The notes under the pieces: model-generated
Told to the model about the DNA's origin: nothing
Database searches by the model: none
Seen by the model: only the letters and a program-made list of their open reading frames with translations
In this document: positions 3,807-46,530 of the stretch, in pieces
How the letters are laid out: each line of letters starts with the position of its first letter
How positions within the stretch are numbered: the first letter of the stretch is position 1
Position numbers and translations under genes: made by a program
NCBI GenBank assembly: GCA_030612005.1
Contig: JAUWOU010000003.1
Span: forward strand, 2,450-66,449
Reading direction: 5' to 3'
Source of the DNA: Candidatus Thorarchaeota archaeon
GTDB lineage: Archaea; Asgardarchaeota; Thorarchaeia; Thorarchaeales; Thorarchaeaceae
DNA length: 64,000 bases

Positions 3807-6554
3807 TCAAACCATTCCCATGATGTGATGTGTGACATATGCTTCGACTAGAGCTGCAATAACCAAGAGGAACACAATCAATGCGAATGTCCTCCATGTA
3901 CGCCCATCACTTAGAAGACTCTTGGTCTTTGACGGAATAGAAGCCCAATCTTCAGCTTCAACCGTGGGCCACAAGTCTTTGGCTATTCGAATGGAAGCCG
4001 CTGCAGCAACCAGAAAGACTGGTATCTCTATAAGCGCATGAGGTATTATCGATGCTAGATACAGTACGATATTGCCACCAAAAGGTGGAGGTGCAGTCAT
4101 TCGAATGATTGCAATACCTCCAACAGTCAAAGCAGTTGATAGAACTTCTGCGATTGCCAAAGACATCAAGCTGAACTTGATATAAGTTATCAAGAAATCT
4201 TCACGTTCACTACCATCACCATTCTCCGTCGCTCTTATACTAAGCCGATCTCTAAACAGTAATCTGTAAGCTCCCGCTAAGACAAGAGGAACAATAATCA
4301 ATGCAATCAAAGTGAATTGGTCATCATAAACAAAGTATTCGATTGCGAAGAGCATGAGGATGAGTGGGAACCATGAGATTCCAATTCCGTTACCTCGCAC
4401 TGAATTCACGATAGCTGCTAATACAATAAACAGTACCGGAATTCCAAATACTATGATTGCCCGATATCCAAGATTTGCTGCAAATCCAAGAACGGGATCA
4501 TATGGATTAAAGACTCCATTTATTGCATCAAATTGAGTCCAGACATATGTGATGGCTGCACACACAACTAATAGAACAACACTCCCAATCCCAACAAGCT
4601 TCTCGTTACCTTTCTTCTCAACAGCCACAAACCATAGGACTGCTGACCAAAAGACAGGACCAATGATTAACATCAAGAATATCCTGATTATATTGTGTTC
4701 GGCAAGGAGGATAAATAATCCACCAGGATTAGGTGGATTCGGAATAAGTATAGCTTCAAGCCCATCGGGATCACCTATCATCCGAAGAAGTTGTTCCAGA
4801 GAACCTAGAACAAAACCGGTATTTGATAGAATCATGGTGACCAACCAGACGCCAACAAGAGATACTGCAAGACCACCAAAGAACATCAAGACAGAGTCAG
4901 TAATGTCTCTCTTGTGAGTGTTCAATAATGGTCCTTCTATATCACCGGTCGTCTGCTTCCACTTGGCTCTGAACTGGAAGAAGTATAGAATGAACAAAGC
5001 AGTGAAGACATACATTGGTAGATTGATAATGAACTGCGAAGCTAAACGGTAGACAAGCTCGCTTTCATCAGGTACTACAGGGTATGGAATTATTCTGTTG
5101 TATATATAGCCAGCATAGTCAGTAGATGTAGTATATGCTGCAAGAATGTAATCCATTCCATTAAGATAGAAGTATGTTATCAGCGAAACAGTTGATCCTG
5201 CTAAAAGAGCAAAGGTTTCTATTCCGCCACCAATCCTCTTTCGTGCCATATGACCCCCAATGCCTGTTAGTAGCATGAAGGTAAATGGAATAGCCAACAT
5301 CAGAAGAGTCCATACTACTGGAGGAAATAGAGCATAGTTGCTTCCAGCTCCTGTGATAGCATATTGAACAGAGTTCCCCAGTTGGCGTGGAAAGATGTAC
5401 AAGCCCATTGTATAGTTTAGCGTTGCTGCAATCACGGCACCAATGAAAGCAAGACTGACAAAAACCCCAGTTCCAACTCCTGTCAGAACATTCTCTACAG
5501 TTTTGCGAATGTTGAGAGAACCTATCTTAGATCGAGCTTGTGTAATTGCATCGAATAGTTTCTTGTAAAATACTACAGCAAAGTCCTCGGCTATTGGTAG
5601 GATTAGTATGGCGAAGATGATTGGAGGAGCTGCGTAAAGCAGACCATACAGATAATATTGCATTACATATTCTCCAACACCTACAATGTCCGAACTGAGA
5701 TATGTCCCAATCTGAGTTATAATTGTGTATAGTGACAAGAGGATATTCAGTCTAAAGAACCATCCAAGTACACCTCTCATCATTTCGCTACCAATGTCTC
5801 GATCACCCAGATGTAGTCCAGCACCCTTCGCAATTCTGTTTGAGGCAGGGTATCCGAATCTATAGATCCATGTTAGGAATATTGTAACACCGAGAAGATA
5901 GTTATTGACATCTTGAGGAATGCCAGTATCTAGTGCGGTGATATATGATGGTAAGCTTCCCATGTATACAGCGATTGATGGAATGAGCGTAGCCAATCCT
6001 ATAATTAAGTAATCTTTCCAAGCACCGCGCCAGGCTTTTGCTTGTACCTCAGGATCAAGTGGTTGTGGTTCAACTCCTTCAAAGCGAATGTTGTTCACAC
6101 GGTCTCTAAAACTGATGAATCCGTCACTCACTGGCTCTCTCTTTGTAATCCTACGAATAATGTTCTTGAAGCGCATTTTCATAGGTTCTTGCATAAGGAG
6201 TTTGATAGCCAACACCAGCATCCCGAATAGGACTGCATAGAAGGCAATCATAATCCAAGTAAGAAACTCCTGTAAGGCAAATACAAACTGAAATATCATA
6301 TCAGTAAGCAGTGCCCAAGTAAGTCCTGTTGTATCCACAGTAGGATTCGCCATTACTTGAACAGAGGGTATTATTGCAATAGTGAACAAGAACCATGTAA
6401 CGGTCTTGAGATACATTACTCCGATGAATACTTCAATGAGCTTGCTCTTCCTTTTTCCAAAGAATAGAAGATAGACAAATGTCACAATCAATGGTGGAAG
6501 AAACTCAAATACTAATGTCAAAAGGGTGATATCTTGTAGCGCCATAGGTGTCAC
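3807..6554 (-). CDS. Large (915 aa) polytopic integral membrane protein with a C-terminal DUF95/SpoIIM-like domain.
   Basis: More than 20 predicted hydrophobic helices. The C-terminal segment '...IIPHALIEIPVFLVAAAASIRIA...' resembles the HG(I/F)xEIPA signature of the SpoIIM/DUF95 family. No other recognisable motif. Confidence 0.5.
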   Translation of the reverse strand: MTPMALQDITLLTLVFEFLPPLIVTFVYLLFFGKRKSKLIEVFIGVMYLKTVTWFLFTIAIIPSVQVMANPTVDTTGLTWALLTDMIFQFVFALQEFLTWIMIAFYAVLFGMLVLAIKLLMQEPMKMRFKNIIRRITKREPVSDGFISFRDRVNNIRFEGVEPQPLDPEVQAKAWRGAWKDYLIIGLATLIPSIAVYMGSLPSYITALDTGIPQDVNNYLLGVTIFLTWIYRFGYPASNRIAKGAGLHLGDRDIGSEMMRGVLGWFFRLNILLSLYTIITQIGTYLSSDIVGVGEYVMQYYLYGLLYAAPPIIFAILILPIAEDFAVVFYKKLFDAITQARSKIGSLNIRKTVENVLTGVGTGVFVSLAFIGAVIAATLNYTMGLYIFPRQLGNSVQYAITGAGSNYALFPPVVWTLLMLAIPFTFMLLTGIGGHMARKRIGGGIETFALLAGSTVSLITYFYLNGMDYILAAYTTSTDYAGYIYNRIIPYPVVPDESELVYRLASQFIINLPMYVFTALFILYFFQFRAKWKQTTGDIEGPLLNTHKRDITDSVLMFFGGLAVSLVGVWLVTMILSNTGFVLGSLEQLLRMIGDPDGLEAILIPNPPNPGGLFILLAEHNIIRIFLMLIIGPVFWSAVLWFVAVEKKGNEKLVGIGSVVLLVVCAAITYVWTQFDAINGVFNPYDPVLGFAANLGYRAIIVFGIPVLFIVLAAIVNSVRGNGIGISWFPLILMLFAIEYFVYDDQFTLIALIIVPLVLAGAYRLLFRDRLSIRATENGDGSEREDFLITYIKFSLMSLAIAEVLSTALTVGGIAIIRMTAPPPFGGNIVLYLASIIPHALIEIPVFLVAAAASIRIAKDLWPTVEAEDWASIPSKTKSLLSDGRTWRTFALIVFLLVIAALVEAYVTHHIMGMV

Positions 6555-36166: not shown

Positions 36167-38221
36167 TTGTGTATTGAGGAGCACAGGCGGAGGCTTATAC
36201 ATAATTCAACAATGTGGATGTGGGAGTCGAACCATGTGAAAGTGGAGACACGGTATATACTACTTGGTTTCGTAGGTATCATACTTCTAGTTACAGCTAT
36301 GGCGATACCATCATTGATAATTAACGATCAGAGAGATCTTTATGATGGTCCTGCAGCTTCAGTAAAATTAGGGTCAATGTTACCTGATGATGTAACGATT
36401 GAAGGATCAATTATCGACAGTTATGTTGATGTTTTGTATACAATGCGCTTTGATAATAGTGCATCAGTAACCGCATCTGAGATTAACTGGCTATTCGAAC
36501 TCCAGGAGGGAATCAGATTGAGTAATGTTTCAATCGTGATTGGGGAAGTCACATACTGGGGACAAGTAATGCCTGAACAAGCTGCCATAGAGGCGTACAA
36601 TGAAAGCGTTGAAGAAGATGAGAGTGCCTTACTTGTTGTAAAATCCGGAGATGGGTATCTGGTCAGTCTGAATTTGGAGAGCGGAATTGAAGCCATTGTG
36701 GGCGTCAGGGTAGAGGGTCTACTTGCAAGAAAATTAGGTCTCTATTCTCTAGATCTTCCTATCTCAAGGGGAGTTCCAATCCAGACAAATGTCATAATAG
36801 ATCTATCAATTCGTTCAAACTTCGATTCAATAGCAGGCTACTCAATCAAAGGGTTGCCTTCGTTCACAGCTACAGATTTGACAGATGGTATTAATATTGA
36901 TTATTCGAGTCAAAATATGATTCTCATAGAAGAATTAGAAATTAGATATACTTTGAATCGACAAATTGGCGGAAGTCAACTATTAACGTATACTAATGGA
37001 ACTGACAACTTCTTTGTCTATCTTCTAGCACCTTCAATAACCGAAGTATCAGATGGAGCATATCGGCAATATGTCTTCATACTGGATAAATCGGGATCGA
37101 TGGGAGGTACCAAAATTGAACAAGCACGCACAGCTTTCAATTCAATGATTGAAACGCTTCAGTCCAATGATCTATTCAATGTCGTTGCGTTTGATAACGA
37201 AATATCAACACTCTGGGTCGAACCACACTCTGCTTCTGTAACAAGCATCGAAGAAGCACAAACCTGGGTTAGCAATATTCAACCAGGAGGTAGCACGAAT
37301 TTCCATGGAGCTATGATGGCAGGTCTAGAAACGATGACAGCAGGAGAGAATGTGAAAGCTATATTGATGTTGTCAGATGGATTACCTACTGCAGGAGACA
37401 TTCAAACTACTGGAGGAATCCTGACAGCTGTTGAAGAAGCTAATGATCTTGGGGTTTCAATATCGACTGTGGCTTTTGGATCAGATTCCGATGAGAACCT
37501 AATGGCGAATATGGCTGCCCAAAACGATGGTTTCTTTGTCTTCATCCAGCCTACGTCCGATGCATCAGCTGAGCTCGTTGAGTTCTACTATGAATTCGCG
37601 ACACCAATTGCTGAATCGTACTCAATCGAATTTGGAGGAGTCCTAGATATGAGTACTCTGAAGCCTTTGGACGATTCACCTTTCTTTAATGGGAGTGAAA
37701 TTATCGTATGTGGTCGTTACGAGACCTCGATGAGTGTCTACACATCTATTGATTATCCAGATGGAACAGAAACCTATACGAATACTGCGACCACAGCATC
37801 AACTGAAAACGCGCATATTGAAAAAATTTGGGCGCAGCATCGAATCACGTATCTTCTAAGAATTGTTCAACTCGAAGGTGAAACACCATCTATCCGAGAT
37901 GAAATTGTTAATCTTGGAATGCAGTATGGAATCATTGTCGAGGGATATACTGCTCTTCTAATAACAACTGATTATCTGGAAGAAACTACCACTACAACGG
38001 AAACGACTACTACTACCACTACTACAACCACTACTACCACTATATATCCTACAACCACTACTACCACTACAGTAGCTCCTGCCACTACTACTACTACTAC
38101 TACTGCAGGCGGACTCCAGGCATTCGATTCAACGCTTGTAGGAGTTGCAGCAATAACAGGTGCAGTCGGAATCATTCTTGTAGGATTGGTATTATTCGTG
38201 ATCTGGAGAAAACGAACTTAG
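36167..38221 (+). CDS. Cell-surface VIT-vWA (von Willebrand factor A) domain protein with a Thr-rich stalk and C-terminal TM anchor
   Basis: vWA MIDAS motif 'ILDKSGSMGG...GGSTNF...LSDGLPT'. A ~37-residue Thr-rich run follows, then the TM anchor 'VGVAAITGAVGIILVGLVLFVIW' + RKRT. The start could instead be at 36212. Confidence 0.8.
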   Translation: MCIEEHRRRLIHNSTMWMWESNHVKVETRYILLGFVGIILLVTAMAIPSLIINDQRDLYDGPAASVKLGSMLPDDVTIEGSIIDSYVDVLYTMRFDNSASVTASEINWLFELQEGIRLSNVSIVIGEVTYWGQVMPEQAAIEAYNESVEEDESALLVVKSGDGYLVSLNLESGIEAIVGVRVEGLLARKLGLYSLDLPISRGVPIQTNVIIDLSIRSNFDSIAGYSIKGLPSFTATDLTDGINIDYSSQNMILIEELEIRYTLNRQIGGSQLLTYTNGTDNFFVYLLAPSITEVSDGAYRQYVFILDKSGSMGGTKIEQARTAFNSMIETLQSNDLFNVVAFDNEISTLWVEPHSASVTSIEEAQTWVSNIQPGGSTNFHGAMMAGLETMTAGENVKAILMLSDGLPTAGDIQTTGGILTAVEEANDLGVSISTVAFGSDSDENLMANMAAQNDGFFVFIQPTSDASAELVEFYYEFATPIAESYSIEFGGVLDMSTLKPLDDSPFFNGSEIIVCGRYETSMSVYTSIDYPDGTETYTNTATTASTENAHIEKIWAQHRITYLLRIVQLEGETPSIRDEIVNLGMQYGIIVEGYTALLITTDYLEETTTTTETTTTTTTTTTTTTIYPTTTTTTTVAPATTTTTTTAGGLQAFDSTLVGVAAITGAVGIILVGLVLFVIWRKRT
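37986..38103 (+). repeat. Imperfect ACT/ACC/ACA trinucleotide tract encoding the Thr-rich linker.
   Basis: 'actactaccactactacaaccactactaccact...' is a microsatellite-like coding repeat. Confidence 0.7.
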
Positions 38222-40205: not shown

Positions 40206-41096
40206 ATGGCAGATGCAATTGAATGGACTAATGCCAGTCCTGACCACTTAGTCTGGAGATATCCAGACAACCGAATAAGTTGGGGCTCACAACTAATTGT
40301 AATGGAAAACCAGGCAGCTATCTTCTACAGAGATGGACAGGCTCTGGATACTTTCCTTGCGGGCCGCCACAAACTTACCACCAGTAGCATGCCAAGCCTT
40401 GCTGGATGGTTACAAAAGAAGATCAAGGGCGACGTCTTTGAAGCCACCTGTATCTTCATTTCCAGATCCCAGTTCCAAGGCAAATACGGTGGAAGAGGAC
40501 AAACAAGCGATCTTGCACCACTCATGTTTCATGGCAACTTCTGGTTCCGCGTCAAGGAACCCAAGATCTTCGTGAATGAAGTCGTATCTAATCAGAACGC
40601 TTTCAGCACCAAGAAGGTCAATGACTTCCTTCGCTCATTTATGAATGAGAGAATCATCGACGAATTTGCTCACTTTGACCTACAATCTGTTTTCACACAG
40701 CTTGACGAAACCTCATTGAAGGTCAAGACCAAGGTCAGAATGAACTTCGAAAGAATCGGGCTTGAGCTCGTAGATTTGAAGTTCGAAGGACTTGATACCA
40801 CAGAAAAGTATCGAGAGCGCCTCTTCTGGCTCAAAACTGGAGGAGTTAGCGGACAGCAAATCATGGGCTCTGAAACTATCAAGTCATCAGCTGAATCTCT
40901 TGGAAAGAGTCCCGGTGCCGGCTTCGGTGCAGGCATGGGCTTCATGGGAGCGGCAGCAGGAATGATGGGCGGTGGCGGACAAAAAGGTGGCGGTGGAGGC
41001 GGTTCAGCCCCTGCTGGAGCCAAGTTCTGTCCTAACTGTGGTACTGCAACTAGCGGTGCTAAGTTTTGTTCCAACTGTGGAACAAAAATCGGATAG
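40206..41096 (+). CDS. SPFH/Band-7-like (Band_7_1-type) protein with a Gly-rich linker and C-terminal double zinc ribbon
   Basis: The N-terminal 'LVWRYPDNRISWGSQLIVMENQAAIFYRDGQALDTF' resembles the Band_7_1 family start. C-terminal 'FCPNCGTATSGAKFCSNCGTKIG'. Confidence 0.55.
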   Translation: MADAIEWTNASPDHLVWRYPDNRISWGSQLIVMENQAAIFYRDGQALDTFLAGRHKLTTSSMPSLAGWLQKKIKGDVFEATCIFISRSQFQGKYGGRGQTSDLAPLMFHGNFWFRVKEPKIFVNEVVSNQNAFSTKKVNDFLRSFMNERIIDEFAHFDLQSVFTQLDETSLKVKTKVRMNFERIGLELVDLKFEGLDTTEKYRERLFWLKTGGVSGQQIMGSETIKSSAESLGKSPGAGFGAGMGFMGAAAGMMGGGGQKGGGGGGSAPAGAKFCPNCGTATSGAKFCSNCGTKIG

Positions 41097-41107
41097 TAGA
41101 ATAATAT

Positions 41108-41146
41108 TGGTTGGGTGTTTTTGCCCAACCAGTTTTCGTTTTTTCT
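41108..41146 (+). terminator. Hairpin (TGGTTGGG-tgtttttg-CCCAACCA) plus T-tract after the SPFH gene. Duplicated at 41823-41860.
   Basis: 8-bp stem followed by 'gttttcgttttttc'. Confidence 0.55.
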
Positions 41147-41230
41147 TGAATCATTCATGCGGGTATTGTGTTGACGATAGTTCCACTTTTACTAAAAGTT
41201 TATACAAACTCCTGTCTAAATATTACATGA

Positions 41231-41680
41231 ATGAATCAGTCGAAGAACCAAAGCAAAAGAAGAAGAACCATCATGTCTAAGTTATCAGATTTAGCAATAA
41301 TATTTTGGATTATTGGAACCATTTTGATTAATTTATCATTTCTTCTTGTAATAATTATTTCTCCTATTCATTTGAATAATATTATTATTATGATTTCTGG
41401 TTGGATTGTCTGCTTTATTGCATCAATATTTACAATCAAAACAAGAAATGAATATCGAATAATTAAACTGAAAAATGGTTTTCCTCTAAAAATTGTTCAG
41501 CTAATTATATTCATTTGTGCAATGTCGATGGCAATCACTTTTGGCCTAGTGGTAGATATATTGAGTTACAAGTACACGGGTAAATTTAGCCTTAATTACT
41601 GGACATTTGGTTGGATTCTGTTCGCAACTGTAAGTTTTACCATTGTATCCATAAGAATAAGGAGCTATCATCCAAATTAA
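41231..41680 (+). CDS. Small membrane protein in a very AT-rich segment (copy A of a duplicated unit)
   Basis: About 28% GC. 4 TM helices. Its 5' end is homologous to that of 41952..42188, but in a shifted frame. Confidence 0.4.
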   Translation: MNQSKNQSKRRRTIMSKLSDLAIIFWIIGTILINLSFLLVIIISPIHLNNIIIMISGWIVCFIASIFTIKTRNEYRIIKLKNGFPLKIVQLIIFICAMSMAITFGLVVDILSYKYTGKFSLNYWTFGWILFATVSFTIVSIRIRSYHPN

Positions 41681-41712
41681 TGAATAACGAAAAAACCCTA
41701 ATGTACCTCTGA

Positions 41713-41811
41713 GCCTCCGTTCGTATCCTGCTATTAAAGTTCCACTCAAACTGCGGTACTGCACTTAATGGTGCCAAGTTTTGTCCCAACTGTGGAACAA
41801 AGATCGGATAG
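41713..41811 (+). pseudogene. Remnant of a zinc-ribbon gene 3' end (encodes ...NCGTALNGAKFCPNCGTKIG*), lacking a start codon.
   Basis: About 90% nucleotide identity to 41037-41099 (the 3' end of the 40206..41096 gene), plus the same downstream terminator hairpin. An in-frame TGA lies immediately upstream. Confidence 0.6.
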
Positions 41812-41951
41812 TAGAATAATATTGGTTGGGTGTTTTTGCCCAACCAGTTCTCGTTTTTTCTAGATTGAATTATTCAAGTAATTACCCAGACATTGCACCC
41901 TTTTTTCTCAAACCTTAAATCGACTCGTGCCTAAATATTACGTGAACGGGC

Positions 41952-42188
41952 ATGAATGAAACAATCGAAGAACCAATGATGAAGAAGACACCACTCAGAA
42001 AGCGAGTGGGAAAGGTATTGTTTTGGATAGGTTTCATAATCATATTGGTGTCCTTTGTTATTTCTGCGCTGATTGTGGTTGGAATAGTGCTGGTAATCAT
42101 TGGTCTTATTGCGATTCTTTATCCAAGGGACGGCGCAGGAAACGGAATCTGGGTGTTGATGATGAGCCCATTTGCAGGTAGCAATTAA
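41952..42188 (+). CDS. Small membrane protein (copy B of the duplicated unit), N-terminus 'MNETIEEPMMKK'
   Basis: 2 TM helices. The 5' region is homologous to 41227-41280. Confidence 0.4.
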   Translation: MNETIEEPMMKKTPLRKRVGKVLFWIGFIIILVSFVISALIVVGIVLVIIGLIAILYPRDGAGNGIWVLMMSPFAGSN

Positions 42189-42219
42189 TCCTGAAGAGTT
42201 AGCGTATTTTGATACGACA

Positions 42220-42747
42220 TTAATTTTGTTTAATCCAGTGTGAATGTGAGTAATGATAAGTATAATCGATTTCAACTTCCCATTCAGTTCCACATGTTTT
42301 GCATTTGACTATCAGGATATCCATCTGTGTGTCATCATCATATCTGCGGTCGATTTCTTCAAGATCAATCTGATAGGGTGGTACATTGAATCCCCCATCT
42401 TGGTAAACGTTGCAATTGCATTTCGCTCCGGACTCTGCATTACGAAGATGCTCAATGAGATACTCATACTCACTCAGATACGTGTTCTTCCATGTTCCTT
42501 GAAGAGCTTCCAATTTCATTAAACTAGGAATATCACGAAGATGTGCCAGCTGGTGAAAAGCAGCCTTGATAAAATCAGAATTCATTTCATACTGGTAAGT
42601 GGAAACCACCCATCGGCAGAATTCAATTACCAATTCAGATGGTTCTTTCTTGAGGTTTTCAAAGAACTTGCGGCATTCCATTTTTCCTGAAACAACATCT
42701 GTTTGGAATGCTTGTATTATCTTTGAAATCATACTTGTTTGAGCCAA
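42220..42747 (-). CDS. Hypothetical protein with a C-terminal Cys/His cluster
   Basis: 'CNCN...CKTCG' potential zinc site. Confidence 0.4.
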   Translation of the reverse strand: MAQTSMISKIIQAFQTDVVSGKMECRKFFENLKKEPSELVIEFCRWVVSTYQYEMNSDFIKAAFHQLAHLRDIPSLMKLEALQGTWKNTYLSEYEYLIEHLRNAESGAKCNCNVYQDGGFNVPPYQIDLEEIDRRYDDDTQMDILIVKCKTCGTEWEVEIDYTYHYSHSHWIKQN

Positions 42748-42793: not shown

Positions 42794-44626
42794 CTAGACA
42801 CTTTGTTCGCGGCGGACAAGATACACTGCCGCTCCAATCAAGACAACAGCTGTAGAAGGAATTACAAGCCACTGAAGGTTTAGAGGTTCTGTTTCTTCTG
42901 CGACTTGAGGGTCCGATCCGCGAAGGTACTCCTCAATATTCGTATACTCATCTTCATCCGGATTTTCATACGCATCATTGACCAATGGATTAAGTCCGTT
43001 TGCCAACTCCCAGGAGTCAATCATGCCATCAAAATCGGAATCGTCGTTGAATGGATTGAGACCTAAATTATATTCCTGAAGATTAGTCAAATTGTCAAGA
43101 TCTGGATCATTGAAAGCGTCAAGAGGGTCCCTTGGGTCAAGTCCGATGTCTAATTCCCAAGCATCCGGCATATCATCATTATCGCTATCTGGGCTATTCA
43201 TATCCAGCCCGAGGATAATTTCCATTGCATCCGAAATCGTATCACTATCTGCATCAGTTTCGAAGAGCTCAGTGTCAAGCCAGTACTCTTCACTATCAAG
43301 TACACCATTCTGGTCTACATCAGAGTCGTACTCGATGTAAATATCGATACCAATACTAATTTCCTCAGGATTGTGAACATGCAATTTGTACAGACCAGGA
43401 ATGGTGACGTCCTGATTCATTACTTGTGTGGGCTCCCAAGGTGAAGCCTCAGTGCGTATTGATGTATTGATAATCGAATCATCAGGACCATACAGGATGA
43501 AATGCGCACGGCCACCAAACCATCTACTGGTGATATTGATGCTTGTAGGAGTAGAAATTGGGATATAGAAATCATATGAACTTTCAGATCGGATATTTCG
43601 GGTATCAGTGAGTAAAGTCTTATGACCATAACCCCTACTCATGGTGAAAGCAAGACTCTCACCTATAAACGCAGTTACTTCCCTACCAAGATAGTAATTG
43701 AATTCTCCGCGACTCCAAACATCATTTTGGGTTCCTGAAACCTCATCATACGTATATCCAGATTCATAGACAAGAAGTACATTCTGGAAACCTCTTTCGA
43801 CAAACTTGTATTGACCAGAACTTGTCCATCGTGTAAAGTCAAAACTGGGAATTAACCTGACAACATTGCCACCATAGAAACAACCCATGGTTTTCGCAAG
43901 GTTTGCCCAGTATTGACCTCCAGGATTGTATGCTAGAATTATTCGTTCGTTGGGATCATCCCAACGATTCTGTATTAGTATTGTGTCAACATTGTACATA
44001 GCTAAAATATCAACGCCATCAAGTGAGTATTGATTAGACATTTCGTTGCTTCCGAGGTGTCCTCCCAAAGCGTGTTCACCATTGAATATCATGAATACAA
44101 TATCTAGTGGCCATTCATACTTTGAAAAGATACGTACAAGTTCAAACATGACTGCAATACCGCTACCATCAGTATTTGCACCAGGACTACCATCAGCTGA
44201 ATCATAATGTGCACTTATGACAAAAATGGGGAGATCATCTCCAGGAAGAAAACCCGGAAGAGTTGCGACGATATTCATGAAGGTACCTTCAATTGAGATA
44301 TCTAATCGACCATTCGACAGTATGGTCATTTCCTGTACCAACCAGTTTCGAGAGTCTTCATTAGTACTTCTTGGAATATCTGCGTAGGTCATGATGTATC
44401 GTGAACCGTTCGCTGTAAACTCCTGTACAATCTCTCTGTACCTTGAATAATTGATATCCGAGTATATTTCCTTAGCAATATTCGTATCGTATATTCGTGG
44501 AAGATGCTCTGCTAGTTGAGCAGTTTCAATAGGTTGAATATCATTTGCTGTGGAACTAATAGCATAACCACTTGGTAAAAGTATGAAGACGATCATTACG
44601 ACTGTAATGAACCACAGCTTTCTCAT
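42794..44626 (-). CDS. Membrane-anchored M28-like peptidase-fold protein with C-terminal Asp-rich calcium-binding-type (thrombospondin type 3-like) repeats and a C-terminal TM helix
   Basis: 'NIVATLPGF...FVISAHYDSADGSPGANTDGSGIAVMFEL' M28-like block. Repeated 'D.D.D...D' motifs ('DTDADSDTISD', 'DSDNDDMPD', 'DDSDFDGMID'). N-terminal signal/anchor. Confidence 0.6.
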   Translation of the reverse strand: MRKLWFITVVMIVFILLPSGYAISSTANDIQPIETAQLAEHLPRIYDTNIAKEIYSDINYSRYREIVQEFTANGSRYIMTYADIPRSTNEDSRNWLVQEMTILSNGRLDISIEGTFMNIVATLPGFLPGDDLPIFVISAHYDSADGSPGANTDGSGIAVMFELVRIFSKYEWPLDIVFMIFNGEHALGGHLGSNEMSNQYSLDGVDILAMYNVDTILIQNRWDDPNERIILAYNPGGQYWANLAKTMGCFYGGNVVRLIPSFDFTRWTSSGQYKFVERGFQNVLLVYESGYTYDEVSGTQNDVWSRGEFNYYLGREVTAFIGESLAFTMSRGYGHKTLLTDTRNIRSESSYDFYIPISTPTSINITSRWFGGRAHFILYGPDDSIINTSIRTEASPWEPTQVMNQDVTIPGLYKLHVHNPEEISIGIDIYIEYDSDVDQNGVLDSEEYWLDTELFETDADSDTISDAMEIILGLDMNSPDSDNDDMPDAWELDIGLDPRDPLDAFNDPDLDNLTNLQEYNLGLNPFNDDSDFDGMIDSWELANGLNPLVNDAYENPDEDEYTNIEEYLRGSDPQVAEETEPLNLQWLVIPSTAVVLIGAAVYLVRREQSV

Positions 44627-44766: not shown

Positions 44767-46530
44767 ATGGTGGAAATGTTGAACAATAAAACTGGATACT
44801 CAAGGTTTCAACAAAAGAAACTTGGGGCATTCTATACTCCACCTCATCTAACCGCACTCATAACAGATGAATCTCTCAATGCGTGGCTTGATAACCATCA
44901 TTCAGATCCTGAAGAAAATCATCAATTGAAAATAGTTCAGAACATCAAGATTCTAGATCCTTCGGCTGGTGCTGGAGCATTTCTTCTATCAGCAGCGGAA
45001 TGGCTTGAAAAAATAAGACAGGAACTTGGTGAAAGAACAAGCATCACGAAGAGACGGGAAGCAATCGTTAGAAACTCACTCTTTGGTGTTGACCTAATCG
45101 GTGATGCTGTTGACAAATGCCGCTCTGAAATCCTTCAATGGGTTACTCCGATTGAGAAGGAGCAACAAGCAATTATTGATTCTGTGCGTGACAATATCAG
45201 GCAAGGAAACAGCCTGACTTCCTTTGACTGGACTAAAAATTTTTCACCAGTTACAACAAGGAAAAATCCTGGATTTGACGTCATACTTGGAAATCCTCCT
45301 TATGGTAATCTTCTGAGTAACGACGAACGTAAGTTCATCCAATCAAAGTATCCCTTCAATGTGGGAGGGAGTAGAACGGGAACTTGGAATAGCGCCGCAC
45401 ATTTCATCGTCAGAGCAAGCATGCTTCTTCGTCAAGATGGAGAACTTGGATTCCTAATCCCGAACAGCATCCTCAGAGTCAAGCAATTTTTAAAAACAAG
45501 ACAGTTTCTCCTTGAGAATCTAAAACTTTGGAAGATTGTTGATGAGGGTAGCCCATTTGACGGAGTAACACTTGAGATGGTTACATTGTTCTGTAGAGGA
45601 CAGAAACCTGGAACCGACGGAGTCATTAAAGTGGAATCTAGAAGACCTGGATTTGAACAGAATAATTCAGTGCCTTTGAAGTTGTTGAGAGCCAGTAATA
45701 TTTTCCCAATCTATCATGATGCAATATTTGAAGCGATTTTAAAGAAGGGTCAGAAGAACATCTTGATTGCGACTAGAGGCCGAGATATTCCCAAGGAACA
45801 TGTTAAACGTACAATAACAAAACCTTACTCTACGCCATATATCACAAGTGGGCGAAGTGTTCGTCGTTATCATATCGATAAGAAATATCAGACCTACACT
45901 GATGACTGGTTCCTAAGAAACAAGGGCTTGAAAGAATCGTTTGATAATGAACTTCTTGTGGCAACGAAAAACTATAGGTATCCTAGATGCGTAATCAAAC
46001 CGCCGGGTACTATTCACGGTGGTGGAATTGTACAAATTAGGCCTTCCTCAAATAGTGTCAACCTTAGAACTCTAGGATTGATTCTAAACTCGAGACTAAT
46101 CCAATATGTTTGTACTCGTTATCTAACAAATTATTCTCAGCTGACAACATGCTTGAATACTGGCATCTTGGAAGAACTCCCCATTATTCTTCCAATATAT
46201 CCAGACACCTATGCATTACTTTTTGATGTACTCTCCATGTTACATCATGAAAAACAAACTTCTGAACGAGAGAGATGCATCAATACTATTGAAACAATTA
46301 GTGAAGCTCTCGTATATGATTTGTATTTTGGAAAAAATGATAAATTGCAGAGAGAAATGATTCTATTGTTAGGCACTGATGAAACCTTCGAAAATGACAT
46401 AACGATTCTCTGTGAGAAAATGAAGAGCAAGTCAGTAGTATTAGAAGCATCAAAAGTGATGAACTGGCCACAGGTTCAACAGATTGAGAATCATCTGAAT
46501 GATAGTCCTGCAAAGTCTCCCAGATACTGA
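44767..46530 (+). CDS. N6-adenine DNA methyltransferase, gamma class (Eco57I/TaqI-like), with a C-terminal target-recognition region
   Basis: Motif I 'ILDPSAGAGAFLLSA' precedes motif IV 'ILGNPPYG'. A TATA-like 'ttatatatat' lies ~50 nt upstream. Confidence 0.8.
   Translation: MVEMLNNKTGYSRFQQKKLGAFYTPPHLTALITDESLNAWLDNHHSDPEENHQLKIVQNIKILDPSAGAGAFLLSAAEWLEKIRQELGERTSITKRREAIVRNSLFGVDLIGDAVDKCRSEILQWVTPIEKEQQAIIDSVRDNIRQGNSLTSFDWTKNFSPVTTRKNPGFDVILGNPPYGNLLSNDERKFIQSKYPFNVGGSRTGTWNSAAHFIVRASMLLRQDGELGFLIPNSILRVKQFLKTRQFLLENLKLWKIVDEGSPFDGVTLEMVTLFCRGQKPGTDGVIKVESRRPGFEQNNSVPLKLLRASNIFPIYHDAIFEAILKKGQKNILIATRGRDIPKEHVKRTITKPYSTPYITSGRSVRRYHIDKKYQTYTDDWFLRNKGLKESFDNELLVATKNYRYPRCVIKPPGTIHGGGIVQIRPSSNSVNLRTLGLILNSRLIQYVCTRYLTNYSQLTTCLNTGILEELPIILPIYPDTYALLFDVLSMLHHEKQTSERERCINTIETISEALVYDLYFGKNDKLQREMILLLGTDETFENDITILCEKMKSKSVVLEASKVMNWPQVQQIENHLNDSPAKSPRY

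Follow-up and report, generated by a model that had tools for sequence, protein, structure and literature searches.

The window analysed here is a 64-kb stretch of Thorarchaeota DNA, in which the 3′ end of a conserved SPFH/zinc-ribbon gene, encoding a membrane scaffold, and the hairpin behind it occur twice. We consider it rather likely that the second copy is a fragment of the gene displaced by recombination anchored in the conserved SPFH gene, that a paralog was inserted afterwards, and that the locus is a recombination hot spot. The duplication would then exist because the small membrane-protein genes behind the SPFH gene have been swapped or inserted repeatedly by recombination. The scar is real and informative, although of a fairly ordinary kind. 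It would be a concrete and well-resolved case from an uncultured Asgard archaeon in which homologous recombination and illegitimate joining combine with promoter capture and ectopic gene conversion. To our knowledge, the population-level genome dynamics of uncultured Asgard archaea are poorly documented. The features of the locus are listed in Table 1.

Table 1. Features of the SPFH locus and of the variable interval behind it (window coordinates).
Feature	Position	Strand	Basis or remarks
SPFH/Band-7 (PF13421) gene with C-terminal double CxxC zinc ribbon; conserved anchor of the locus	40206-41096	+	Pfam
Repeat copy A, part 1: final 25 SPFH codons (KFCPNCGTATSGAKFCSNCGTKIG and stop)	41022-41096	+	Repeat alignment
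Repeat copy A, part 2: 12-bp GC-rich hairpin (41106-41133), then T-run; intrinsic-terminator shape	41106-41147	+	
Leader/putative promoter of resident small gene; TATA-like TTTATA at 41199-41204, 23 nt before ATG 41227	41148-41226	+	Sequence
Stump of resident small membrane-protein gene (MNESVEEPKQKKK), cut after nt 41266	41227-41266	+	
Low-GC (28%) gene for 135-aa four-helix membrane protein; homology block ~41267-41690	41273-41680	+	Homologs P0001-P0015, AF2
Short spacer, possibly decayed upstream edge of remnant B	41691-41736	+	
Repeat copy B, part 1: non-coding SPFH zinc-ribbon 3′ remnant (KFHSNCGTALNGAKFCPNCGTKIG and stop), without start codon	41737-41811	+	
Repeat copy B, part 2: identical hairpin (41821-41848) and T-run	41821-41862	+	
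Leader/putative promoter of second small gene, divergent leader type; TATA-like TTAAAT at the aligned position	41863-41951	+	
Intact small membrane-protein gene, 78 aa, 2 TM	41952-42188	+	
Accessory gene orf175, 175 aa, no family match	42220-42747	-	In window, L002 and L080; absent from other haplotypes
M28-family peptidase, C-terminal TM anchor	42794-44626	-	Hypervariable, 44-74% aa between close strains
Eco57I-like N6 DNA methyltransferase; conserved right flank of variable interval	44767-46530	+	

Extent and Identity of the Repeat

A repeat search and alignment placed the two copies at 41022-41266 (A) and 41737-41991 (B), offset by 715 nt. Each contains, in order, the SPFH/zinc-ribbon 3′ end, the hairpin with its T-run, a promoter-proximal leader and codons 1-13 of a small gene. 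The recurrence described in the initial annotation is therefore real, with its limits (41037-41280 and 41748-42000) now corrected. The repeat search within the window found three paired blocks at a spacing of 715-725 nt: 41022-41165 with 41737-41880 (144 nt, 85% identity), 41187-41231 with 41902-41946 (76%) and 41226-41263 with 41951-41988 (84%). The 29-nt hairpin occurs exactly twice in the window and was absent from all 100 shuffles.

Identity is distributed unevenly along the repeat. It reaches 83% (62/75) in the zinc-ribbon coding end, 94% (51/54) from the stop codon through the hairpin and T-run, and 77% in codons 1-13 of the small ORF; the leader, at 56%, is barely above unrelated control segments (48-49%). 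The value of ~90% previously given for the whole repeat thus applies to a 113-nt core (92%) only, as the individual segments range from 56 to 94%.

Only the initial ~245 nt of each 715-nt unit can be aligned. The interiors (41267-41736 and 41992-42451) are unrelated, and 41267-41466 compared with 41992-42191 gives 49% identity, the level of the unrelated control. The locus had been described as a tandem-duplication or insertion scar; a recombination or insertion scar remains, but the units lack the whole-length, head-to-tail homology of a simple tandem duplication. An elaborated version, in which a 715-nt unit was doubled in place by unequal crossing-over or slippage, the low-GC gene overwrote the first small gene and other strains lost the second, is unlikely, though it retains some real weight. 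The copies do lie head-to-tail at 715-nt spacing, both with a leader and a small-gene start, and the zinc-ribbon coding DNA contains an internal 39-nt repeat that could promote slippage. The unrelated interiors argue against it, as does the leader of copy B, which differs from that of copy A to the extent given above and is unlike any other allele compared.

SPFH/Zinc-Ribbon Gene, Hairpin and Remnant

The assignment of the anchor gene to the SPFH/Band 7 and zinc-ribbon families is based on Pfam matches above the curated cut-offs: Band_7_1 (3e-21, 76.3 bits, cut-off 24), Band_7 (45.3 bits, cut-off 23.6) and Zn_Ribbon_1 (8e-7, 29.2 bits, cut-off 25). Orthologs share 75-100% of amino acids across about 60 Thorarchaeota loci, and a dN/dS of 0.03-0.11 indicates strong purifying selection throughout. 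The C-terminus is a conserved zinc ribbon, with no toxin domain found in Pfam. Between the window and locus L007, the gene diverges by 1.8% over nt 1-450 and by 13.7% over nt 451-810; this step marks a recombination breakpoint inside the gene.

In the frame of remnant B, a TGA at 41710-12, nine codons upstream of the homologous part, is followed by ASVRILLLKFHSNCGTALNGAKFCPNCGTKIG and a stop codon, with no ATG, GTG or TTG between. The piece is homologous to the last 25 SPFH codons (24 aa and the stop) and carries His in place of the first zinc-ligand Cys. The earlier description of the second zinc-ribbon copy as a start-less remnant is borne out. Truncated and without a start codon, it is, as far as its sequence tells, a non-functional pseudogene fragment and should not be annotated as a gene. 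Translation of the remnant by read-through or frameshifting from the low-GC gene was also considered and rejected, since the frames differ and stops intervene.

A hairpin with a T-run stands behind the SPFH gene in nearly all Thorarchaeota, with differing stem sequences. Under a strict rule, it was found at 32 of 58 loci and at 0 of 58 in an in-gene control, with 41 distinct stem sequences; a structurally conserved hairpin of this kind is a putative terminator in Thorarchaeota. In the window, both copies comprise a GC-rich stem-loop downstream of a stop codon and directly followed by the T-run, and by this shape they are putative terminators. The copy-B hairpin and T-run now appear placed to terminate the low-GC gene. 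Neither Rfam nor a tRNA scan returned a hit in the window; hence, the hairpin belongs to no known RNA family and is not a tRNA serving as an integration target.

Small Membrane-Protein Genes

The leader type of the resident small gene is also present in L071, L073, L076 and L078. The stump matches the 5′ end of an intact 94-aa gene in L080 at 38 of 40 nt; codon 2 (AAT vs ACT) accounts for both differences, which leaves an exact match over the 33 nt that end at the breakpoint. In the frame of 41227, the start of the resident gene ends at a stop at 41280, whereas a 149-aa ORF called from 41231 reads the stump out of frame and then enters the low-GC gene. The two small genes thus have a common 5′ end and different frames, as noted before, and the 149-aa call is a fusion artefact of the gene stump and the 135-aa gene, which should be borne in mind in annotation.

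The intact 78-aa protein belongs to a clade-restricted family of 78-94 aa, always located downstream of the SPFH terminator; a local HMM search found matches only in the window, L001, L002 and L075-L080. Between strains with 95-100% identical SPFH proteins, the small proteins are only 32-57% identical, and the dN/dS of the small 2-TM gene is 0.2-0.7. Neither the low-GC protein nor the 78-aa protein nor orf175 matched a family in Pfam, PHROGs, PADLOC or NCBIfam. Scans of viral contigs with the low-GC protein, the small-protein family and orf175 gave no relatives, and exact look-ups of the 78-aa protein and of the low-GC homolog P0001 returned nothing on record.

Low-GC Gene

The GC-content is 22-35% across 41100-41700 and 28.2% in the low-GC gene, compared with 41.9% for the window; the low-GC island reported earlier (~28% vs ~41%) is confirmed. 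The true start of the gene is at 41273, and copies adjoining FtsZ begin with MSKLSDL. GC at the three codon positions is 0.27/0.32/0.26, against about 0.50/0.37/0.35 in neighbouring genes. Homologs with 53% amino-acid identity are found in Asgard MAG contigs of 27-28% GC, so the gene may have been acquired horizontally. However, much of the deviation can be put down to the amino-acid composition (I, F, L, K, N), and relatives also have the gene at their FtsZ locus. An AF2 model (pLDDT 71) features four TM helices and had no significant match among PDB folds (best E-value 1.8). The idea that the segment is anonymous foreign DNA was rejected: it is a conserved 135-aa membrane-protein gene, near-identical copies of which adjoin FtsZ in relatives, with homology stopping at the ORF ends.

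The junctions of the gene are identical in the window, L071 and L073, which suggests that they derive from one insertion. That the segment is a transposon, MITE or integron-type cassette, with the repeat as a target duplication or attachment site, is highly improbable. The gene does occur at no fewer than two unrelated loci, with homology cut off sharply at the ends of the ORF, and is flanked on both sides by the conserved hairpin. However, neither terminal inverted repeats nor short target-site duplications were found at 41267 and 41690, where no direct repeat extends beyond AAC and no inverted repeat pairs the two ends. There is no integrase, transposase or reverse transcriptase within about 10 kb, and a Pfam search for an integrase in 19 ORFs of at least 78 aa between 31 and 52 kb gave none. 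The hairpin also stands behind the SPFH gene in Thorarchaeota without any insertion; a 245-nt duplication at 56-94% identity is unlike a target duplication made by transposition; and the viral-contig scans revealed no relatives. The block itself is the ORF of a conserved membrane protein, unlike an IS, MITE or transposon, and its boundaries do not coincide with the hairpin as those of an integron cassette would. The variable cassette region suggested initially is strain-variable, with four arrangements in close relatives, but the data do not support a cassette of the integron or transposon type.

Alleles of the low-GC gene are more similar across loci than within one. The copy at the SPFH locus of L071 is 98.5% identical to that at the FtsZ locus of L074, and L073 and L072 are 97.8% identical across loci, while same-locus pairs reach 93.6-95.8%. 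Informative sites group alleles across loci in 15 + 7 cases and by locus in 2. Alleles common to two loci, in a tract limited to the ORF, are the pattern of ectopic gene conversion, assuming that both copies coexist in one genome. As a separate observation, this small membrane protein shows a surplus of amino-acid-changing polymorphism, with 4 synonymous and 37 non-synonymous changes (P about 0.03).

Haplotypes of the Locus in Thorarchaeota

Across about 60 Thorarchaeota loci, the order MBL - TM149 - SPFH/Zn-ribbon ... MTase is conserved, and the variable interval of 0.1-3 kb behind the SPFH terminator differs in almost every lineage. Within the clade with the identical hairpin, four haplotypes were distinguished. 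H0 has no remnant and comprises SPFH-T-small-M28 (L076, L078), SPFH-T-small-MTase (L079) and SPFH-T-small-orf175-M28 (L080), where T is the terminator. H1 is SPFH-T-small94-spacer-B-T-M28 (L001, L075, L077), so that remnant B sits downstream of an intact small gene. H2 reads leader-stump::lowGC-B-T-M28 (L071, L073). H3, found in the window and L002, has leader-small78-orf175 after B and could be ancestral or derived.

Orthologous remnants are present in L001, L071, L073, L075, L077 and L081. All B copies carry CAC TCA and CTTAAT, which indicates a single origin. Judging from these diagnostic substitutions, remnant B predates the low-GC insertion, since it occurs with them in strains without the low-GC gene. 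No relative was found with an intact second zinc-ribbon gene, an arrangement that the initial annotation had named as speaking against its reading.

A chimeric join of two co-occurring strains across the shared repeat is extremely improbable. Metagenomic contigs do tend to break at the SPFH-end repeat, which should be kept in mind when assemblies are compared: the L003 contig stops inside the hairpin, 24 nt beyond the last SPFH codon and 21 nt beyond the stop codon, and the L071 contig starts just past the hairpin. However, the longest exact match between copies A and B is only 47 nt, and L002, an ENA assembly under another sample accession, is identical at the locus, with 14 mismatches in 8891 nt, all outside it. 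In L073, which comes from a different sample and has SNPs of its own, a single contig carries the A terminator, the low-GC gene, B and the M28 gene. The junction between low-GC gene and remnant seen in L073 is also spanned by L071 and L081, again from other samples and each with distinct SNPs, and the H1 strains carry both copies in their own arrangement. L081 has the low-GC gene with its own 33-nt promoter adjoining remnant B. This contig may itself be a chimera, which would speak for joining errors at this locus; a genuine contig would imply a more complicated insertion history than the one proposed below.

Remnant B reads TALNGAKFCPN and resembles the SPFH ends of sister lineages (TALSGAKFCPN), while the unusual A allele TATSGAKFCSN is found in all remnant-bearing genomes with a recovered SPFH 3′ end (window, L002, L001, L075, L077). 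That B is slightly nearer to sister-lineage alleles than to its own A, and that the odd A allele co-occurs with B, count against duplication in place. Over the 75-nt zinc-ribbon part, however, A, B and sister alleles are about equidistant (11-13 differences), and so this alignment does not decide between import and in situ duplication. Duplication in place would also require three independent losses, because L001, L071 and L073 each have a different sequence after the B terminator. Remnant B of L001 directly adjoins a C-terminal TM-anchor fragment on the reverse strand, and gene ends of this kind point towards the small gene in H0 haplotypes; the similarity of the fragment to M28 C-termini is only the generic one to other C-terminal anchors, e.g., that of L007. 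These points against tandem duplication are not decisive, and the two explanations differ only in the origin of remnant B: in situ tandem duplication followed by divergence would leave the same remnant.

Proposed History of the Locus

In the preferred scenario of displacement by recombination, the SPFH/zinc-ribbon gene with its terminator would serve as the left homology arm and the methyltransferase gene as the right arm, and the genes between them (small 2-TM protein, orf175, M28 peptidase) would be exchanged between lineages. First, a segment consisting of the SPFH 3′ part, terminator, leader and small gene would have entered the ancestor shared by the window, L001 and L071/L073 strains; one end would have paired homologously inside the SPFH gene and the other would have been joined illegitimately. 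Unequal or tandem duplication could give the same product. A 5′-truncated zinc-ribbon end with its terminator, remnant B, would thereby have been pushed downstream, in the geometry of C-terminal displacement. We know of no description of the DNA uptake or recombination machinery of Thorarchaeota.

In the second step, of which the junctions are observed, a promoter-less low-GC gene, the other copy of which adjoins FtsZ, may have taken the place of the first small gene beyond codon 13 and of everything up to remnant B. The low-GC gene would now be driven by the resident promoter, with the hairpin and T-run of remnant B behind it; this position is probably why the remnant's terminator is still intact. 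In the third step, the low-GC copies at both loci appear to keep exchanging alleles. We infer this order of events from six or seven metagenomic haplotypes rather than from a rooted phylogeny.

Comparison with Known Systems

YdjI-type SPFH proteins of B. subtilis, which belong to the same Pfam family (Band_7_1, PF13421) as the SPFH protein of the window, are membrane-associated scaffolds with small membrane or zinc-ribbon proteins as neighbours. In the Thorarchaeota locus, by contrast, the zinc ribbon is fused to the SPFH protein, and the small genes would not form an operon with the SPFH gene, because they have their own putative promoter behind the terminator.

The hairpins share with bacterial intrinsic terminators a GC-rich 8-12-bp stem, a 4-nt loop and a T-run directly after it, a position right behind the stop codon, and a structure kept while the sequence changes between species. 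The host differs: in archaea, termination is generally attributed to U-tracts and aCPSF1, and hairpins are regarded as dispensable (PMC8716108, PMC7515710); the role suggested for the hairpin here is read from sequence. The low-GC gene resembles cases of concerted evolution by ectopic gene conversion in its 98% identity across the SPFH and FtsZ loci, against about 94% at the same locus, and in homology confined to the ORF. Both loci were never on one assembled genome, so that their coexistence in one cell is presumed, and repeated re-copying of the gene would give the same pattern.

The first step proposed would resemble homology-facilitated illegitimate recombination, for which the sources cited give experimental proof only from transformable bacteria and from conjugation in E. 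coli (de Vries & Wackernagel 2002; Prudhomme et al. 2002; via PMC5361080, PMC3240628). Common to both are one conserved anchor, here the SPFH gene with its internal breakpoint, and one non-homologous junction, as where the L001 remnant abuts an unrelated reverse-strand gene end.

C-terminal displacement and orphan modules are described for Rhs, CDI and T6SS effector-immunity loci (Jackson et al. 2009; Poole et al. 2011; Kirchberger et al. 2017, PMC5361080). The Thorarchaeota locus has the same geometry: the intact main gene is followed downstream by a 5′-truncated copy of its 3′ end with a small gene of its own (remnant B, then terminator, leader and 78-aa gene), and the content varies between strains. 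The origin proposed for it, in which the conserved upstream part pairs homologously and the downstream end is joined illegitimately, is also shared. It differs in its Asgard host, in the single orphan and in the displaced end, a conserved 25-codon zinc ribbon with a terminator; the immunity function known there has no known counterpart in the Thorarchaeota small gene.

It is very improbable that the SPFH 3′ ends and small membrane proteins are functional polymorphic modules analogous to effector-end/immunity arrays, with displaced modules retained and small proteins under diversifying selection, e.g., in virus or cell-cell interaction. The architecture does match that of orphan-module arrays (PMC5361080), the small proteins diverge strongly beside near-identical SPFH proteins, and the low-GC gene combines excess non-synonymous polymorphism with inter-locus allele exchange. 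However, the displaced piece is a conserved zinc ribbon and not a variable toxin domain, and the SPFH gene, under strong purifying selection, is not a conserved body whose variable C-terminal toxin domain is swapped with a small gene. In addition, PADLOC, PHROG and Pfam gave no hits for the small proteins, only a single orphan and never a longer array is seen, and the dN/dS of the small 2-TM gene is below 1. Somewhat less doubtful, although still improbable, is a broader proposal: the interval behind the SPFH gene may be a dedicated diversification site, where SPFH-end/terminator modules act as recombination anchors for shuffling fast-evolving small membrane proteins, including a positively selected low-GC four-helix protein kept in step between two loci by gene conversion. 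Such a site would be the archaeal counterpart of the polymorphic effector/immunity arrays of bacteria, and viruses or contact between cells might be what drives it.

Structure of the repeated interval

A duplicated unit of gene end, terminator and small ORF had been claimed in the initial annotation. Repeat search and alignment confirmed the repeat as three aligned blocks 715–725 nt apart. Copy A comprises the 3′ end of the SPFH/zinc-ribbon gene, a hairpin with a T-run, a leader and the start of a small gene, and copy B repeats this series downstream. The two copies share 83% identity over the last 25 codons of the SPFH/zinc-ribbon gene, 94% over the stop codon, hairpin and T-run, and 77% over the first 13 codons of the small gene; the leader, at 56%, is barely above unrelated control segments (48–49%). 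The window has exactly two copies of the 29-nt hairpin, whereas none turned up in 100 shuffles. The second zinc-ribbon copy proved to be a remnant, as had been proposed: its translation, ASVRILLLKFHSNCGTALNGAKFCPNCGTKIG followed by a stop, has no start codon after the TGA at 41710–41712. The low-GC island was also found, with 22–35% GC across 41100–41700; the gene inside it, encoding a 135-aa membrane protein (the low-GC gene), has 28% GC vs. 41.9% for the whole window.

Features of the interval and copies of the low-GC gene (window coordinates unless a contig of a relative is named)
Feature	Contig	Position	Remark
SPFH (Band_7_1) gene with C-terminal double CxxC zinc ribbon	window	40206–41096	Pfam
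Repeat block 1	window	41022–41165 and 41737–41880	144 nt, 85%
Repeat block 2	window	41187–41231 and 41902–41946	76%
Repeat block 3	window	41226–41263 and 41951–41988	84%
Hairpin and T-run, copy A	window	41106–41147	after SPFH stop
Hairpin and T-run, copy B	window	41821–41862	after remnant B
Low-GC gene	window	41273–41680	
Low-GC gene	L071	136–531	
Low-GC gene	L072	226–630	
Low-GC gene	L073	172–576	
Low-GC gene	L074	468–863	
Low-GC gene	L081	91–495	
78-aa ORF	window	41952–42188	small gene after copy B leader
orf175, 175 aa	window	42220–42747	minus strand
M28 peptidase	window	42794–44626	minus strand; C-terminal TM anchor, aspartate-rich repeats
Eco57I-like methyltransferase (MTase)	window		right of M28 peptidase

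Within the zinc-ribbon coding end (41022–41096), both CxxC knuckles are encoded by an internal direct repeat of ~27–34 nt with 39-nt spacing (GCNAARTTYTGYNNNAAYTGYGG), which is present in many SPFH orthologs and is a potential slippage substrate. Elsewhere in the window, ACT/ACC-rich imperfect repeats with a period of 9–18 nt (37985–38103), close to the 3′ terminus of the VWA-domain gene, encode a threonine-rich linker, and a 50-nt segment occurs three times at 261-nt spacing and 66–82% identity (1464–2035), probably as repeated domains of a large gene at the window’s left end.

The neighbours at 31–52 kb are housekeeping genes, e.g., a thermosome subunit and an M3 peptidase. A mobile element was rejected, as the 19 ORFs scanned in this region include neither an integrase nor a transposase. 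No family was assigned to the low-GC ORF, the 78-aa ORF or orf175 in Pfam, PHROG, PADLOC or NCBIfam.

SPFH gene and its 3′ hairpin

SPFH orthologs were found on about 60 contigs named Thorarchaeota or Promethearchaeota (75–94% identity), with the conserved order VWA – orf124 – MBL – TM149 (reverse) – SPFH, then a gap, then MTase. The gap varies from 0.1 to ~3 kb, and its content is lineage-specific: it can be empty or hold M28, an M28 remnant or unrelated genes. M28 is missing from many Thorarchaeota, and on contig L017 just its C-terminal remnant is left (6030–6212). The SPFH gene is under strong purifying selection, with 17 synonymous and no non-synonymous differences between the window and contig L001. 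In three Bathyarchaeota homologs (L063, L065 and L066; 34–36% identity), extra in-frame CxxC...CxxC zinc-ribbon repeats lie past the aligned end, so the number of C-terminal zinc ribbons varies in the SPFH family.

Directly 3′ of almost every Thorarchaeota SPFH ortholog (loci L001–L061) lies a GC-rich hairpin with a T-run, the stem sequence being species-specific and the structure kept. By a strict rule, the hairpin and T-run were detected at 32 of 58 loci vs. 0 of 58 in the in-gene control, with 41 distinct stems. In structure, the hairpin is thus conserved at the 3′ end of the SPFH gene. Judged from sequence, it is terminator-like and has the shape of a bacterial-style terminator in an Asgard archaeon. 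To our knowledge, hairpins are not thought necessary for archaeal termination. U-tracts and aCPSF1 are the elements to which the latter is usually ascribed (PMC8716108).

The SPFH gene is mosaic. The window differs from L007/L008 (5001–5891) by 1.8–3.1% over nt 1–450 and by 13.7–14.8% over nt 451–810 (1.8% vs. 13.7% for L007 alone), so that a recombination breakpoint must lie inside the gene.

Haplotypes behind the SPFH gene

Contigs of the clade with an identical hairpin were collected by exact-protein look-ups, homolog look-ups and one metagenome DNA scan, and fall into four arrangements.

Gene arrangements behind the SPFH gene (T, hairpin and T-run)
Haplotype	Contigs	Arrangement
H0, without second copy	L076, L078	SPFH – T – leader – small gene – M28
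H0, without second copy	L079	SPFH – T – leader – small gene – MTase
H0, without second copy	L080	SPFH – T – leader – small gene – orf175 – M28
H1	L001, L075, L077	SPFH – T – leader – intact 94-aa small gene – 275-nt spacer – remnant B – T – M28
H2	L071, L073	leader – 13-codon stump fused to low-GC gene – remnant B – T – M28
H3	window, L002	as H2 up to B terminator, then leader – 78-aa gene – orf175 – M28

The feature is reproducible across several public assemblies, and an assembly artefact was rejected on this recurrence: L002 and the window do not differ within the locus, and all 14 mismatches in 8.9 kb fall outside it. Several contigs (L003, L071) break at the repeat; assemblers break contigs at true repeats.

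The small gene (78–94 aa) occurs only in this clade, always directly after the SPFH terminator. Its two-TM product has conserved ends (MNES..EEP... and ...WIMMMSPFAGNN) and a variable loop that the 78-aa form has lost; dN/dS is 0.2–0.7. The leader of the window and L073 lacks, at 41227, the 10 nt (AATGGGCATG) found in L071 (81–100). The other small-gene leaders (window copy B, L001, L076–L080) also have 10 nt at this position, of different sequence. The deletion is flanked by two CATGAATG repeats and shortens the distance from the TATA-like box to the ATG by 10 nt.

Origin of remnant B

All B copies carry the same diagnostic changes (TGTCCT to CACTCA, plus CTTAAT), hence B has a single origin, before the split of H1, H2 and H3. 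Right after the B T-run, the sequences of L001, L071, L073 and the window are mutually unrelated. M28 is only 44–74% identical between strains with 95–100% SPFH identity (window, L001, L071, L073, L076, L080). Measured against the window, M28 alleles reach no more than 50–74% identity, although SPFH is 100% identical where present and MTase 90% (L001) or ~70% over the recovered N-terminal part (L071). The block right of the terminator has thus been exchanged repeatedly.

Remnant B encodes TALNGAKFCPN, resembling the SPFH ends of sister lineages (TALSGAKFCPN), and the unusual A allele TATSGAKFCSN is present in every remnant-bearing genome with a recovered SPFH 3′ end. In L001, a reverse-strand fragment directly upstream of B (5510–5590, minus) encodes a classic C-terminal TM anchor (...GGIGGVALVVVIIVVMKKRS and ELITLIIIGGIGGVALVVVIIVVMKKRS, each before a stop). 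In single-copy haplotypes, a gene end of this type lies opposite the small gene. The fragment probably derives from the 3′ terminus of a convergent surface-protein gene that has been lost; a donor gene for it was not identified.

These alleles, the anchor fragment, the SPFH breakpoint and the variability behind B all fit a displacement event. Incoming DNA would pair within SPFH and bring along another SPFH 3′ end with terminator, leader and small gene, while its other end would join illegitimately inside the resident zinc-ribbon codons, so that the resident SPFH 3′ end (B) would be displaced downstream. In-situ unequal duplication, which would lead to the same product, is a serious rival as regards the origin of B only; the 75-nt alignment does not separate duplication from displacement, since A, B and the sister alleles differ from one another to about the same extent.

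Insertion and evolution of the low-GC gene

The junctions of the low-GC gene are identical in the window, L071 and L073 (left, ...AAGAAGAA / GAACCAT(C/T)ATG; right, ...TAATGAATAAC / GAAAAAA), which speaks for a single insertion event. Of the 40 nt preceding the left junction, 38 agree with the intact small-gene start of L080, and the final 33 nt are identical; the resident small gene was therefore cut after codon 13. Copies adjacent to FtsZ (L072, L074) start with MSKLSDL, i.e., at the ATG at 41273, so the 149-aa ORF from 41231 is an out-of-frame stump read fused to the 135-aa gene. Flank homology between these copies and the window ends within ~7 nt on the 5′ side of the ORF and ~10 nt on its 3′ side. 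The resident leader, with a TATA-like TTTATA (41199–41204), appears to be the only candidate promoter for the gene. The insertion was probably later than B; it replaced the small-gene body and the spacer, and the B hairpin and T-run became the first terminator-like signal 3′ of the gene. Continued use, gene conversion or both could plausibly explain why the B terminator is still 94% like A while the rest has drifted.

Fifteen homologs of the low-GC protein were found: 11 at 81–88% identity on short contigs, one fragment at 65% and three at 47–55% from other Asgard MAGs, on contigs of just 27–28% GC. GC by codon position is 0.27/0.32/0.26 vs. roughly 0.50/0.37/0.35 in neighbours. The gene is possibly foreign, from a low-GC Asgard lineage; its I/F/L/K/N-rich composition accounts for much of the GC signal. 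The AF2 model (pLDDT 71) predicts four TM helices and a small beta-hairpin loop, and a PDB fold search with it gave no significant match.

Alleles pair across the SPFH and FtsZ loci (L071–L074, 98.5%; L073–L072, 97.8%; ~94% within a locus), and 22 informative sites group across loci vs. two by locus. Between L072 and L074, identity is 99.1% in the FtsZ flank and 93.7% in the gene and its surroundings. The pattern indicates ectopic gene conversion or repeated re-copying from an allele pool. Among six DNA copies, 37 of 41 biallelic sites are non-synonymous and four synonymous, vs. 9.1 synonymous expected for the observed mutation types (P ~0.03); pairwise dN/dS is 1.7–7, except for the near-identical L071–L074 (0.28). 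Indels are in frame, the central loop KTRNEYRIIKLKNGFPLK is invariant and variation lies in the outer helices; hence the sequence is coding, with the outer helices under relaxed or diversifying selection.

A further contig, L081 (1–623; ERZ4220937, 3.7x coverage), joins the 33-nt promoter of the FtsZ locus, a low-GC allele and the remnant-B flank. The allele is mosaic, with a 5′ half resembling L072/L073 and a 3′ half that does not differ from the window; for the first 57 nt of the contig there is no match elsewhere. L081 could represent a fourth haplotype or else an assembly chimera.

Overall interpretation

The best explanation of the feature is a recombination scar within a hypervariable interval of the chromosome, with a displaced or duplicated 3′ gene fragment and its terminator, on top of which a promoter-less paralog was inserted, capturing the resident promoter. 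Of the earlier reading as a tandem-duplication or insertion scar in a variable cassette region, the recombination scar, the variable interval and the insertion stand; a simple tandem duplication and an integron cassette do not. Two loose ends are of most interest: the low-GC gene, with its apparent positive selection and its alleles shared between loci, and the conserved putative hairpin terminators. Displacement of the same geometry has also been put forward for the orphan modules of Rhs, CDI and T6SS loci (PMC5361080). This kind of event is already known from bacteria, and its nucleotide-level resolution in an Asgard archaeon is new without being surprising.
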